Shown here: piece by piece, positions 46,286 to 50,996 of the stretch
Numbering within the stretch: the first letter of the stretch is position 1
Layout of the letters: each line of letters begins with the position of its first letter
From: Lachnospiraceae bacterium
Lineage (GTDB): Bacteria; Bacteroidota; Bacteroidia; Bacteroidales; Bacteroidaceae
Reading direction: 5' to 3'
NCBI GenBank assembly: GCA_963604545.1
Contig: CAVCRI010000001.1
Location: 1 to 52,390 of the forward strand
Length of the DNA: 52,390 bases
The notes under the pieces: generated by a model
Seen by the model: the letters and a program-made list of their open reading frames with translations, nothing else
What the model was told of the DNA's origin: nothing
Databases searched by the model: none
Translations under genes and position numbers: made by a program

Positions 46286-46888
46286 ATGGAATATTTATTG
46301 ATATTTATCTCGGCGATATTCGTCAACAACATCGTGTTGTCTCAGTTCCTCGGTATCTGTCCGTTCCTGGGCGTATCGAAGAAGATTGATACCGCCATCG
46401 GCATGGGTGGTGCCATCGCCTTCGTCTTGACCTTGGCCACCATCATCACCTGGCTCGTGCAGAAGTACGTGCTCGATCCGTTTGGCTTGCAGTATCTTCA
46501 GACGCTGTCGTTCATTCTCGTGATAGCGGCATTGGTCCAGATGGTGGAGATTATCCTCAAGAAGGTTTCGCCAGCGCTTTACCAGGCACTGGGCATCTTC
46601 CTGCCATTGATTACCACCAACTGTGCCGTGCTGGGTGTAGCCATCCTGGTTATCCAGAAGGACTTCAACCTGTTGGAGAGCGTGGTCTATGCCTTCTCCA
46701 CCGCCCTTGGCTTTGCCTTGGCACTCATCGTGTTTGCAGGCATCCGAGAGCAGCAGGCGTTGGTTCGCATTCCTAAGGGCATGCAGGGCATGGCCATCGT
46801 GCTCGTCACCGCATCGCTCCTGAGCCTCGCCTTCATGGGATTCTCTGGTGTAGACAGCGGTCTCAAGGCCTTGTTCGGGTTGGAATAG
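46286..46888 (+). CDS. rnfA: Rnf electron transport complex subunit A
   Basis: NNIVLSQFLGICPFLGVS and LPLITTNCAVLG motifs. Confidence 0.96.
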   Translation: MEYLLIFISAIFVNNIVLSQFLGICPFLGVSKKIDTAIGMGGAIAFVLTLATIITWLVQKYVLDPFGLQYLQTLSFILVIAALVQMVEIILKKVSPALYQALGIFLPLITTNCAVLGVAILVIQKDFNLLESVVYAFSTALGFALALIVFAGIREQQALVRIPKGMQGMAIVLVTASLLSLAFMGFSGVDSGLKALFGLE

Positions 46889-46890
46889 GA

Positions 46891-46932
46891 CAGCTTTGTG
46901 AATCAGGCAGCTTTGTGAATCAGGCAGCTTTG
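46891..46932. repeat. 17-bp tandem repeat x2.5
   Basis: CAGCTTTGTGAATCAGG at 46891 and 46908, partial at 46925. Confidence 0.9.
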
Positions 46933-46953
46933 AAACTATAGGAATAAGATGCT

Positions 46954-47078: not shown

Positions 47079-48173
47079 CTAGCATCCGTGGTCCTTGAAG
47101 AACCCATCGAGCCCCTTGACGATGTAGCCAGCCACGTTTAGTGGCTTCTTGAACTTCTTGCATCGGGCGATGAAGTAGTCCTTTCGCAAGAACCAGATGT
47201 GCAAGTCGCCCAAATCACAGAGGCGTAGGCGATGGCAAAGCAGGTGCGCCGTCTTCTCTTCCACCTGGTAGATTACCTTGAGCTTCACGCTTAGCTGTAG
47301 CTGATAGCCTTTCAGCTGCTCCAGTCGCTCACCCTTCGGGGCGATGTCCTGGCGGTCATTCACCGTGAATATCACGTGGATGTGATTGTCGTCGTCCGGC
47401 TTGGTGTAGGGCTTGTAGTCGATGTACTGGTCGATGATCCCCTTGTCATAGAGGCTCTTCAACTCCTGCTTCGCCACGAGCAGCACATGGTTGTTTAGCT
47501 CGCTGAAGTGCTTGTAGACTAGGGGATTGCCCTTCATGAGCTCCGTCACCTTCTGCATGGTGAGGTCTCTGTAGCCTCTGCACAGCAGGAACTTCATGAT
47601 GAGGTACATCTTTCTTGTGAAGATGCTTCTCATCTTGCCCAGTTCCGCGAGGTCAACCTTGGCATAGCCCTTGTCGAGTGACATGAGCGTGACCCACACG
47701 TCGAGGTCGAACTTCAGGCAGACATACTGCAGCTTTTGCTTGCTGTAGGCATAGACGGTGAATAGCCGCGGAAACTGCGTGAAGCTCGTAACCTCGCCGT
47801 TGACGATGGGGATTCTGACCTCCATCTTCGACATCTCTTCCATTTGGCATTTCAGTCGCGAGTAGTGCTGCGGCTTGACGCCAAAGGCCTTGAGCGGCAC
47901 CCATAGCAGCACGCCCTTGCGAGCCACTTGTTCGGGTGTGAGGGGGTACTTCCCATGATACACCTTGGCATTGATGACCGTAGGCTTGATCCATACTTCC
48001 ATGTACTTGGCAAGCATCATGAGTACCTTGAAATGAGCACAATTGTAGTTAGACTGCATGAGTGCCCAAGTGCCCAGCAGCACGAACATGTCGTGCTGGG
48101 GCGTGCCTTCTGCTTCAGAGAGAAGAACAAGAGATGGTTTTTGTTCCAATGCTTCTTTCCTTGTTTGATTCAA
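47079..48173 (-). CDS. Rep_3/RepB-like replication initiator protein (divergent)
   Basis: MRSIFTRKMYLIM and YKHFSELNNHVLLVAKQEL resemble the second winged-helix signature of Rep_3 initiators (L.S.Y..RLY..L / Y..F..F...VL..A..EL). TTG start. Confidence 0.65.
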   Translation of the reverse strand: MNQTRKEALEQKPSLVLLSEAEGTPQHDMFVLLGTWALMQSNYNCAHFKVLMMLAKYMEVWIKPTVINAKVYHGKYPLTPEQVARKGVLLWVPLKAFGVKPQHYSRLKCQMEEMSKMEVRIPIVNGEVTSFTQFPRLFTVYAYSKQKLQYVCLKFDLDVWVTLMSLDKGYAKVDLAELGKMRSIFTRKMYLIMKFLLCRGYRDLTMQKVTELMKGNPLVYKHFSELNNHVLLVAKQELKSLYDKGIIDQYIDYKPYTKPDDDNHIHVIFTVNDRQDIAPKGERLEQLKGYQLQLSVKLKVIYQVEEKTAHLLCHRLRLCDLGDLHIWFLRKDYFIARCKKFKKPLNVAGYIVKGLDGFFKDHGC

Positions 48174-48250: not shown

Positions 48251-48441
48251 TAGAATAAAATATTCTCTGATAGGAATGTCTGCCATCCTTTAACACGATT
48301 CCATACTCCTGCTATGCCAGTCCCTGTGAAATATTCCTTATCTAATATCTATATCACAAGTCTAGCACAACCATAAATTCTTAGAATCGTGTTAATCCAT
48401 GACATGCTTCCTATGCACAGAAATGGAATATTCTTATTCTA
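48251..48441 (-). ncRNA. Long rod-like structured RNA in the leader of the rep-like gene
   Basis: Six nested helices, with G-U pairs that work only on the minus-strand transcript; downstream of the promoter at 48504-48535. Confidence 0.65.
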
Positions 48442-48503
48442 TTAATTAGAGTTGCACAAGCACTCAGCTAGTGATTAGCTGTGTTTCTTGTATTATGTTG
48501 CTG

Positions 48504-48535
48504 CAAAGTTACGAATTTATTATGAAACCACCAAA
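48504..48535 (-). promoter_or_regulatory. Promoter for the structured leader and rep-like gene
   Basis: Minus strand: TTTG (48532-35), 20-nt spacer, TAACTTTG (48504-11). Confidence 0.75.
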
Positions 48536-48881
48536 TGTTTTTGGTATTTTATTGCGAAAAACATGAAAAAAGTTATGTTTTAATGTCGAAGAGCATGTTT
48601 TGGTGGCAAAATGTACCCGTATATATGGGTCCAGGGCTTATTTTTCGGAGATATTTGCATACCATGCGCCAAAGTTACTACACCTTATTATATATAGGAA
48701 CTAATGCCATGTGTGTTTCCTTGGCTATTCAAAACCAATGTTGAGAGAAAAAAAGATGACACTCTCACGTATACGTATATTACTATAGTTATAAATTGTA
48801 TATAATAGTATATTAGGTTAAGCCAATTTTCTTCGTAAGTGACTGATGGATAGCGAGATGCGAAAAATGTCGTTTCTGAGG

Positions 48882-48974
48882 TGGTAACTTATGGGGGCTG
48901 GATTTGATGGATATGGTAACTATTATGGGTAGAAGTGGTAACTTTGGAGGGGTGATTATCTAAATTGGTAACTT
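48882..48974 (+). repeat. Four TGGTAACT boxes (iteron-like)
   Basis: At 48882, 48914, 48936 and 48966 (spacing 32, 22, 30), next to an AT-rich tract at ~48770-48815. Confidence 0.7.
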
Positions 48975-48993
48975 GGGCGTTCGGTGACAGGTG

Positions 48994-49122
48994 CTTACGC
49001 TTATATCAGCATCATCTTACGCCTATATCAGCATCATCTTATGCCTATATCAGCGTTCGCTTACGCCTATATCAGTGTTGCCTCGTGCCTATATCGGCAT
49101 TGCCTTACGCTGGTATAGGCGT
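48994..49122. repeat. Five 22-bp direct repeats plus inverted copy
   Basis: CTTACGCCTATATCAGCATCAT-like units at 48994, 49016, 49038, 49060 and 49082, with an inverted partial copy at 49104-49122. Confidence 0.92.
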
Positions 49123-49175
49123 TGCGTTCTTCCTATATAAGCAGGCTAGTTCTTCCGCTATCGGCGTTGTCTGAT

Positions 49176-49337: not shown

Positions 49338-50003
49338 ATGGCAGTAAGTTACAGTGTATCTAAGATGAATTCAAACTTCGGCGACAAGACCGACGGCAAG
49401 TTCTACGCCCATGCGCAGATCAACGGCACCACCTCGCTCAAGCAGTTCTCCCAGCTCATCGCCTCTCAGACCACCGTGTCGCGTGCTGATGTGGCAGCCG
49501 TGCTCATCAGTTCGGTAGAGAACCTCGTGATGGAGCTTCAGCGTGGCAACCAGGTGGAGTTTGGAGAGCTGGGCAAGTTTCGCCTGCAGATTACCAGCAA
49601 GGGTGCCGAGACGGCGGCTGACTTCAAGTCGGACACCAACATCACGGGTGTGAACGTGCAGTTTGTGCCAGGTGAGGACCTCAACGATCTCTTCTCCAAA
49701 CTGGAGTTTACACCTGTCGCCTCTCGTCTCATCCAGAAGGCTGCCCTCAAGGCTGAGAAGGAGCAGGCAAAGACCCTCGACCTCGATGCCATCAAGGCGA
49801 GCGGCAAGAAGAACAACGGCAATGATGACTCTGACAAGGGTGGGTCTACCACTGGCGGCTCTACTTCGGGAGGCTCAGGCTCATCTACCGGTGACTCTGG
49901 CTCATCTACCGGTGACTCTGGCTCATCAACCGGTGACTCTGGATCATCTGCCGGTGGCTCAGGCAGTTCCAGCAGTGATGGCGACGATGTAGGCATCGGA
50001 TAG
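49338..50003 (+). CDS. Bacteroidales HU-related DNA-binding protein (HU-HIG type) with Gly/Ser-rich tail
   Basis: KFYAHAQ, TTVSRADVAAVL, GNQVEFGELGKFRLQI and VNVQFVPG motifs; GSSTGDS repeats. Confidence 0.88.
   Translation: MAVSYSVSKMNSNFGDKTDGKFYAHAQINGTTSLKQFSQLIASQTTVSRADVAAVLISSVENLVMELQRGNQVEFGELGKFRLQITSKGAETAADFKSDTNITGVNVQFVPGEDLNDLFSKLEFTPVASRLIQKAALKAEKEQAKTLDLDAIKASGKKNNGNDDSDKGGSTTGGSTSGGSGSSTGDSGSSTGDSGSSTGDSGSSAGGSGSSSSDGDDVGIG
49878..49961 (+). repeat. In-frame 21-bp repeat x4 encoding GSSTGDS
   Basis: GGCTCATCTACCGGTGACTCT units at 49878, 49899, 49920 and 49941 (degenerate). Confidence 0.9.
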
Positions 50004-50186: not shown

Positions 50187-50612
50187 ATGAGAGAGATCAA
50201 TATGATTGTGGTGCATTGCAGCGCGACTCGCTGCAATCGCCGATACACCCTGGAGCAGTTGCGACACGACCATGTGATGGTGAACCACTGGCGTGACATC
50301 GGCTATCACTACTACATCACCCTCGATGGCATCGTGCATCCCTGCCGACCGGTGGAGCGCATGGGTGCCCATGCCCGTGGCTACAATGGCCACTCCATCG
50401 GAATCTGCTATGAGGGCGGGCTCAACGAGAACGGATGCATCACCGATACTCGCACGCCTGAGCAGAAGGAGGCGATGCGGCGACTCATCATCGACCTGCA
50501 TCGTCGCTTCCCTTCCATCCGAACGGTGCTGGGGCATCGGGACTTGCCGGGTGTACAGAAAAGTTGCCCTAGCTTCAATGCCTGGCAACTGCAATCCTTG
50601 CTGAAGGATTGA
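50187..50612 (+). CDS. N-acetylmuramoyl-L-alanine amidase (Amidase_2, T7 lysozyme-like)
   Basis: IVVHCSAT, WRDIGYHY, AHARGYNGHSIGICYEGG, GHRD and KSCPSF motifs; no signal peptide. Confidence 0.93.
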   Translation: MREINMIVVHCSATRCNRRYTLEQLRHDHVMVNHWRDIGYHYYITLDGIVHPCRPVERMGAHARGYNGHSIGICYEGGLNENGCITDTRTPEQKEAMRRLIIDLHRRFPSIRTVLGHRDLPGVQKSCPSFNAWQLQSLLKD

Positions 50613-50735: not shown

Positions 50736-50996
50736 ATGATGTGTAAACCAAGTGATTATGAAGCTACGGCGAGCAGCTATCCTGCTCGCATGTATAGCAA
50801 GATAGAGCTGTCTCTGCTCTACTTTCCGCAGACCGACGACAAGGCGGTAGCCCGCCATCATCTGATGGCTTGGATCAAGGGATGTCCCGAACTTTGGACG
50901 AAATTGCAGGAGCTGGGGTATCGCAACCGTTGTCAATTCTTTTCGCCACGCATGGTGCGGCTCATCATGGATTACCTAGGTGAGCCCAGCCGATGA
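50736..50996 (+). CDS. DUF4248 family protein
   Basis: YSKIELSLLYFP...L.AWI...L...L..LGY...FSPRMVRLIMDYLGEP; usual neighbour of HU/smalltalk/amidase. Confidence 0.85.
   Translation: MMCKPSDYEATASSYPARMYSKIELSLLYFPQTDDKAVARHHLMAWIKGCPELWTKLQELGYRNRCQFFSPRMVRLIMDYLGEPSR

Follow-up and report, generated by a model that had tools for sequence, protein, structure and literature searches.

Replicons built around a Rep3 initiator and iterons are controlled at the level of DNA, through autorepression and handcuffing, and the attenuators of the pT181 and pIP501 plasmids are leaders of initiator genes with mutually exclusive folds, one of them terminator-like. In an excerpt of PMC5415839, antisense-induced attenuation is listed for the pT181/pIP501 plasmids, and an excerpt of PMC4825925 describes phage P4 immunity as an arrangement of seqA, CI RNA and seqC, with premature termination before the replication genes. 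The locus considered here lies on the minus strand of a 52,390-nt stretch of DNA (the whole of it is called the window below). We propose, with a probability of about 0.55, that a rod-shaped RNA at 48251-48441 belongs to an attenuator, a cis-acting switch with two states in the leader of a Rep3 initiator gene embedded in the chromosome, and that the rod is the state that lets transcription read through.

The rod is a real, selected RNA structure. On the minus strand it folds with a minimum free energy (MFE) of -71.0 kcal/mol, which 0 of 200 shuffles equalled (z -8.28), against -44.3 kcal/mol on the plus strand (z -5.82); the minus-strand fold is far stronger, so the strand asymmetry is real, as the original prediction of a strand-specific rod with G-U pairs had held. 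The MFE structure is unbranched, with 73 bp of which 10 are G-U. Its outermost helices are 48251-60/48432-41 (10 bp) and 48261-65/48426-30 (5 bp), followed by 48266-69/48418-21, 48270-76/48408-14 and 48281-86/48399-404, then by the inner helices 48290-303/48382-95 (14 bp), 48305-08/48375-78 and 48311-20/48362-71 (10 bp), and at the top by 48323-29/48354-60 and 48330-35/48344-49. The nested pairings first drawn from the sequence all recur in this fold, except that the innermost (48323-33/48350-60) is split into the two short helices at the top. What the original prediction missed is that the 3' arm of the rod can also pair with a conserved segment further downstream, which makes the rod one of the states of a switch with three segments, all on the minus strand: A, the 5' arm and proposed antiterminator strand (48361-48391, core 48371-62); B, the 3' arm, which can pair with A or C (48295-48326, core 48320-11); and C, the second partner of B (48246-48203, core 48219-10). 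When the leader is folded in full, the outer third (48251-86 with 48399-441) proves to be just one of several near-equal options (energy -85.4 for the pure rod vs. -88.1 for the MFE), and the inner rod (48290-48395) is kept in every full-leader MFE in which A is free and B:C is not forced.

The placement of the rod between a consensus promoter and a TTG start was likewise confirmed. A Bacteroidetes-type promoter occupies 48504-48535 on the minus strand, with a -33 TTTG (48535-32) and a -7 TAACTTTG (48511-04) separated by a 20-nt spacer, and its score of 27.9, from a matrix built from this genome, is the highest among 20 leader promoters. Transcription would begin near 48497, which puts the rep leader at about 330 nt (~325-350). 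A short inverted repeat (48524-48545) spans the -33 box and is a possible operator. At the 5' end of the leader lies a hairpin (48456-48491, minus strand) whose fold is strand-symmetric and whose plus-strand reading (48465-48481, with a U-rich tail to 48490) resembles a terminator. Such a site could end a counter-transcript. Ten of the 20 leaders, vs. 10.5% of 200 controls, have a terminator-like antisense site near the 5' end with an energy of -7 kcal/mol or better, which would suit a classical antisense-controlled attenuator of the pT181/pIP501 type, in which an RNA that covers the 5' leader or A switches the structure to B:C; the logic of A, B and C is compatible with this as well. However, no antisense promoter was found at a common position in the 20 leaders (best antisense score at most 9.5 vs. 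19.8-27.9 for sense), the excess of hairpins may merely mirror structured 5' ends, and the G-U-rich rod folds worse on the opposite strand in 12 of 12 leaders, so that we consider antisense control decidedly unlikely. A conserved leader peptide was ruled out because frames and stops differ among leaders. Separately, an in-frame AUG 36 nt upstream of the A core recurs in several alignment rows.

The same plan was found in the leaders of related rep genes. Leaders were taken from promoter to start for 72 loci, giving 41 distinct leaders; 5 loci were dropped because the promoter was missing from the stored DNA. A:B and B:C duplexes are both present in all 41 distinct leaders, most of which are close Segatella copri sequences and therefore not independent. 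Segment B starts with GGCA or GGCG and forms, with its upstream partner A, a rod with a variable top hairpin; the downstream segment C repeats A, likewise pairs with B and is usually followed by a U-rich tract. Among 12 representatives the energy of A:B was reached by 0-11 of 500 shuffles (0 for the window) and that of B:C by 0-25 of 500 (14 for the window). At equilibrium B pairs with C in five representatives and with A in seven, and the energy gap when each fold is forced (B:C minus A:B) runs from -6.7 to +12.4 kcal/mol, is +3.5 for the window and lies within 7 in 10 of the 12.

Covariation supports the claim that the structure is selected at the RNA level. It was counted on structure-blind MAFFT alignments, with shuffle counts that ignore kinship. 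For A:B, across 15 homologues and with the window excluded, both partners had changed in 10 of 24 pairs, a number that 0 of 500 shuffles reached, and 89.5% of cells were paired compared with 29-42% in slid controls. For B:C, with 16 rows of which two are misregistered, 86.8% of cells were paired and the covariation score was reached by 0 of 500 shuffles; the number of pairs with both partners changed (6 of 17) is weak, with 19 of 500 shuffles reaching it and a slide by +1 giving 7. A motif-blind test sought, for any 26-mer, the best duplex on either side and took the less stable of the two as its score; the controls were 150 of the 1167 promoter-following stretches of this genome, with coding DNA left in. 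Eighteen of 19 leaders, including the window, were matched by six or fewer of the 150 controls (one for the window), whereas locus L124 fails, with 25 of 150 controls matching it; the best B started at +165 to +192 in 18 of the 19 leaders. By computation, then, A:B and B:C both exist, are mutually exclusive, covary and are close in energy, and a rep leader with exclusive antiterminator and terminator-like folds, a mark of the pT181/pIP501 type, is what was found. In the leaders of L123-L128, a GGGGG-rich B is followed by two tandem C-like elements, both CCCCC-rich and each close to a U-rich tract, and the L009 leader has an extra B-like copy toward its 5' side that is able to pair with C.

The window leader belongs to this group by its plan. 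MAFFT puts its B and C in register with the homologues, B stands at +179 compared with +168 to +191 in most of them, and the distance from B to C is 100 nt compared with 88-124 nt in the 15 homologues. Window B reads AGC where its relatives have GGA, and A and C both pair with the altered bases. Nevertheless, the covariance model built on the 15 homologues (R1) and three homologue DNA profiles (nhmmer, window excluded) all missed the window leader, and a degenerate family pattern did not match it, so far has its sequence diverged. Its kinship would thus be carried, rather than by sequence similarity to the homologue models, by the protein tree, position, architecture, a core of ~10 nt and the three-way compensation, and the leader family as a whole is held together by architecture, not sequence. 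The window leader folds into A:B in preference to B:C at every transcript length tested at equilibrium, and refolds into B:C when A is blocked.

How could two such folds control rep? In the attenuator that we favor, the strong promoter would yield a leader of ~330-350 nt in which A is made before B, so that the A:B rod forms first and masks B. With the rod formed, C would remain single-stranded and RNA polymerase would continue into rep. If A were occupied, or if C ousted A by strand exchange during a pause, B:C would form just before the U-rich tract as a long-loop hairpin, and transcription would stop 30-70 nt upstream of the start codon. B:C is thus the predicted terminator and A:B the presumed ON state, and the outcome would be a low supply of initiator for an origin-like region within the chromosome. 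In favor of this reading, the 8 nt past C contain 4-7 U in all 12 representatives. The predicted loop of the B:C terminator, ~50-100 nt, counts against termination, as do the weak U-tract of the window and the preference of its leader for A:B. As to the trigger, our ranking is a matter of judgement: a protein of the module, such as Rep or the DUF4248 protein, binding the rod seems the most plausible, although short of an even chance; an RNA acting in trans, either antisense or the leader of another copy, comes second as a tentative candidate; and pure folding kinetics is the doubtful third.

The same switch could instead act on translation or mRNA stability, with B:C masking a pyrimidine/U-rich stretch that the ribosome needs upstream of an A-rich start, or with a nuclease cutting one of the two folds. 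Protein S1 is the ribosomal factor that needs such a stretch. The U-tracts are modest, with only 4-5 U in those 8 nt in eight of the 12 representatives, and that of the window is weak (48209-02, 4 U in 8) and can join the B:C helix, which in its extended form reaches 48203 (48196 in one duplex), ~25-30 nt upstream of the first TTG. In most homologues, however, C ends 60-70 nt upstream of the AUG, beyond the ribosome footprint, and the U-rich tract follows directly on the helix as in a terminator; an output of this kind is therefore unlikely, although it is the alternative that we rank first. In a further alternative, RNase III or RNase P would process the leader, and the small RNA released would have other leaders as its targets in trans, comparable to CI RNA or the short form of IsrK; this is less probable than either an effect on translation or stability or antisense control. 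The seqA/CI/seqC plan of P4 also has a central element with complementary sites on both sides, one upstream and one downstream (excerpt of PMC4825925), many genomes hold two or three leader copies with near-identical cores, and the rod has candidate features of an RNase III substrate in its 14-bp helix and stacked shorter helices; yet B is fully paired in both folds, so that a cut product would stay on A (duplex strength -22 to -31 kcal/mol in the leaders), and no Rfam family of this kind matches.

The RNA is tied to the gene that follows it. The covariance model gave 17 sense matches in 12 of 151 genomes, many of them training rows, and 15 of these precede an intact rep, one precedes a broken rep and one has no rep, which bears out the earlier suggestion of a cis role on the Rep gene. 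A further proposal of the original prediction, a stand-alone non-coding RNA that would mimic a promoter in the manner of 6S or serve as an RNA partner of Rep, was not supported. It draws on the size (~190 nt) and shape of the rod, and one leader (L118:964-1062) is retained where rep has been lost. Against it, the rod is the middle of the ~330-nt rep leader, its outer ends are not fixed, its internal loops measure at most 4 nt per side with no large central bubble, and the conserved C would be left unexplained. The true Bacteroidales-1/6S gene of this genome (RF01693, 115.9 bits) is on another contig, at C102:10319-10534. Rfam gave no relevant match in the window or in 16 loci at the gathering threshold (one tmRNA only), nor in 9 loci when matches were admitted up to E 0.5, and the P4 CI, C4 and IsrK models matched neither the window nor the homologous loci. 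We regard an independent RNA as very improbable, the least credible of the readings weighed here.

The gene (47079-48173, minus strand) encodes a replication initiator of the Rep3/RepE fold to which a helical domain is added at the C-terminus. Its Rep3_N (WH1) domain matches PF01051 at 31.8 bits (cut-off 22.4), and its structure model has the fold of two winged helices, aligning with R6K Pi over 208 residues (Z 10.5, rmsd 4.8) and with RepE over 197 residues (Z 8.8, rmsd 9.6); a Foldseek search gave E 7.7e-5 among its RepE/RctB matches. Agreement with R6K Pi, F RepE and RctB covers Rep residues 26-276. Residues 280-364 (47082-47340, minus strand) form a conserved, confidently modelled helical domain that is absent from RepE/Pi; its structural matches within the complete model were confined to generic helical bundles, and when folded alone its pLDDT was 48.6. 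Translation may start at TTG 48173 or, more likely, at TTG 48149, which is favored because it aligns with the start of the 71% identical relative P0002 and with the start context of the homologues.

Matches to Rep at E 1e-10 or better were found in 71 of 401 genomes of the genus. A near group with 30-41% identity comes mostly from Segatella copri and its relatives, and a quick protein tree unites the window, P0002 and P0013 with this group at a support of 98. In complete genomes the near-group rep lies on the largest contig, often in two copies, and decay is seen: the rep of L117:601-1348 is internally deleted and frameshifted, and that of L135 is truncated at its 5' end, apparently by an insertion element. 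Because of this location, duplication and decay a chromid origin was ruled out for the near clade. A distant group with ~25% identity includes L044:5842-7008, beside smpB on a 568-kb P. nigrescens replicon labelled a plasmid; many genomes of the genus have a single-copy relative of this rep whose leader is short, and the smpB-adjacent rep is likely a chromid initiator. Eight more distant reps of the module type, L009 among them, have structured leaders of 343-376 nt (z -5.1 to -9.7), whereas leaders measure 21-68 nt at 11 loci of other clades, most of them chromid-like, and two more have no promoter motif. The module-type rep of L134 is an exception with an apparently short leader (76 nt from the -7 box), and L132 is ambiguous. 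Model R1 matched neither the L009 leader nor the chromid-like loci, and it found nothing in 121 genomes from the phylum, a draw that held no positive control and shows little. Scans of genome and metagenome contigs, with the window protein or A3 as query, gave no DNA of a close relative, nor did a second draw of 351 genomes of the genus. Viral sequence scans gave no match, and in plasmid and phage collections the matches were limited to distant Reps and a single 122-aa fragment.

The rep gene belongs to a module with an origin-like region. An AT-rich, TA-alternating stretch that resembles an unwinding element (48760-48818) has counterparts upstream of homologous promoters, and it is followed by spaced GGTAACT repeats, which are candidate iterons (48875-48974) and are replaced by spaced ACCA-type repeats in the homologues. 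Next comes an array of 22-bp repeats (48972-49147), seen as seven overlapping 44-nt copies at 22-nt spacing. Together the repeats upstream of rep may form an origin. Period-22 arrays also lie upstream of several homologous reps; however, there are seven in this genome, including that of the window, so the array is not specific to rep, and since unit sequences also change fast, differing even between near-identical Reps, the origin role of the repeats is uncertain. The other six stand between unrelated genes (C3:25646, C122:562, C124:5252, C174:1280, C249:2468 and C273:3102), and the C122 array is 71% like that of the window. Divergent from rep, on the plus strand, are genes for an HU-HIG DNA-binding protein (49338-50003; PF18291, TIGR01201), an Amidase_2 protein (50187-50612; PF01510) and a small DUF4248 protein (50736-50996; PF14053). 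The Gly/Ser tail of the HU-HIG protein is encoded by 21-bp repeats (49857-49982), and three 17-bp tandem copies (46883-46933) lie at the left edge of the module, directly past the last rnf-type gene. Housekeeping genes (rnf-type operon, T9SS plug) stand on either side, and the module itself has no phage or integrase genes.

Similar neighbors surround the relatives. A survey of 39 loci (L057-L095) included 26 with at least 2.5 kb upstream, among which HU-HIG and amidase genes were present in 16 and DUF4248 in 24, and none matched the single integrase query; at L048 an integrase lies ~7 kb from rep. Variable neighbors include fimbrillins, SusC-like genes, glycosidases, PD-(D/E)XK nucleases and IS elements. 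The window genome as a whole has ten amidase and seven DUF4248 matches, with further modules on G000 contigs C24, C39, C273, C126, C162, C218, C307 and C340. In several modules a 690-750-aa gene, called primase-like by resemblance, replaces Rep3, and those of this genome have promoter motifs 36-70 nt upstream of the start. A second Rep3 module (G000:C8:33360-34379; L009, L056) encodes a protein 25% identical to the window Rep; its leader measures 376 nt (z -6.1), and it too includes an amidase, HU-HIG and 22-bp repeats. At its most speculative, and unlikely to hold in full, our model would have antisense-free attenuators gating dormant, integrase-less replicons (origin, Rep3, HU-HIG, amidase and DUF4248) in Segatella/Prevotella chromosomes. 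Flipped by a module protein or by the leader RNAs of sister copies, they would open to local replication that amplifies or releases adjacent variable cargo such as fimbrial and glycan-use genes.

A switch family on chromosome-embedded Rep3 genes of Segatella/Prevotella is apparently undescribed, and our literature search found no description of such a leader or module. The text of an S. copri dRNA-seq preprint (10.1101/2024.04.05.588293) reports, in the portion available, 63 ncRNAs, 30 of them derived from mRNA, and does not mention the rep leader, which its tables may list. In excerpts of PMC6231650 and PMC10434189, DUF4248 is without assigned function, and its mentions are confined to expression tables or a deletion study. 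Supplement files 1-6 of PMC8040213 gave no match to the core motifs, and a candidate motif in its alignment archives is possible. These results suggest that Prevotella/Segatella, which are abundant in the gut, have a family of cis RNA switches that has apparently gone undescribed. Such switches would add iteron-type Rep3 initiators to the genes under RNA attenuation and offer a handle on the poorly understood HU-HIG/amidase/DUF4248 modules, of which this genome holds many. One member of the family (L088) comes from S. copri HDD04, a genetically tractable strain for which dRNA-seq data exist.

Several known systems invite comparison. The 6S RNA of Bacteroidales-1 (RF01693) is of similar size and rod-shaped, whereas the window rod has no match to its model and no central bubble. 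IsrK of Gifsy-1 (PMC4825925) likewise has two near-equal leader folds and a terminated short form that could act on the long form, but it switches translation of a conserved uORF, while leaders of the window type have neither a conserved uORF nor an Rfam match. With P4 immunity the locus shares a central element complementary to one upstream and one downstream site; here, however, the pairings are intramolecular and 17-30 bp long, B is not exposed in loops, and the module has no phage or integrase genes. The CI RNA of P4 is a processed small RNA, whereas processing of the window leader would be hypothetical. The pT181/pIP501 attenuators offer a similar logic, an initiator-gene leader with exclusive folds of which one is terminator-like. 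No test of sequence similarity to them was positive, and they differ from a chromosomal Bacteroidetes module with a Rep3/RepE-fold protein, a long-loop B:C and no antisense promoter found. Finally, the iteron replicons (F RepE, R6K Pi, pPS10 RepA, Vibrio RctB) share the protein fold and the upstream repeats with an AT-rich stretch, whereas the locus described here adds a proposed 350-nt RNA switch, an extra C-terminal helical domain of Rep and a location on the main chromosome.
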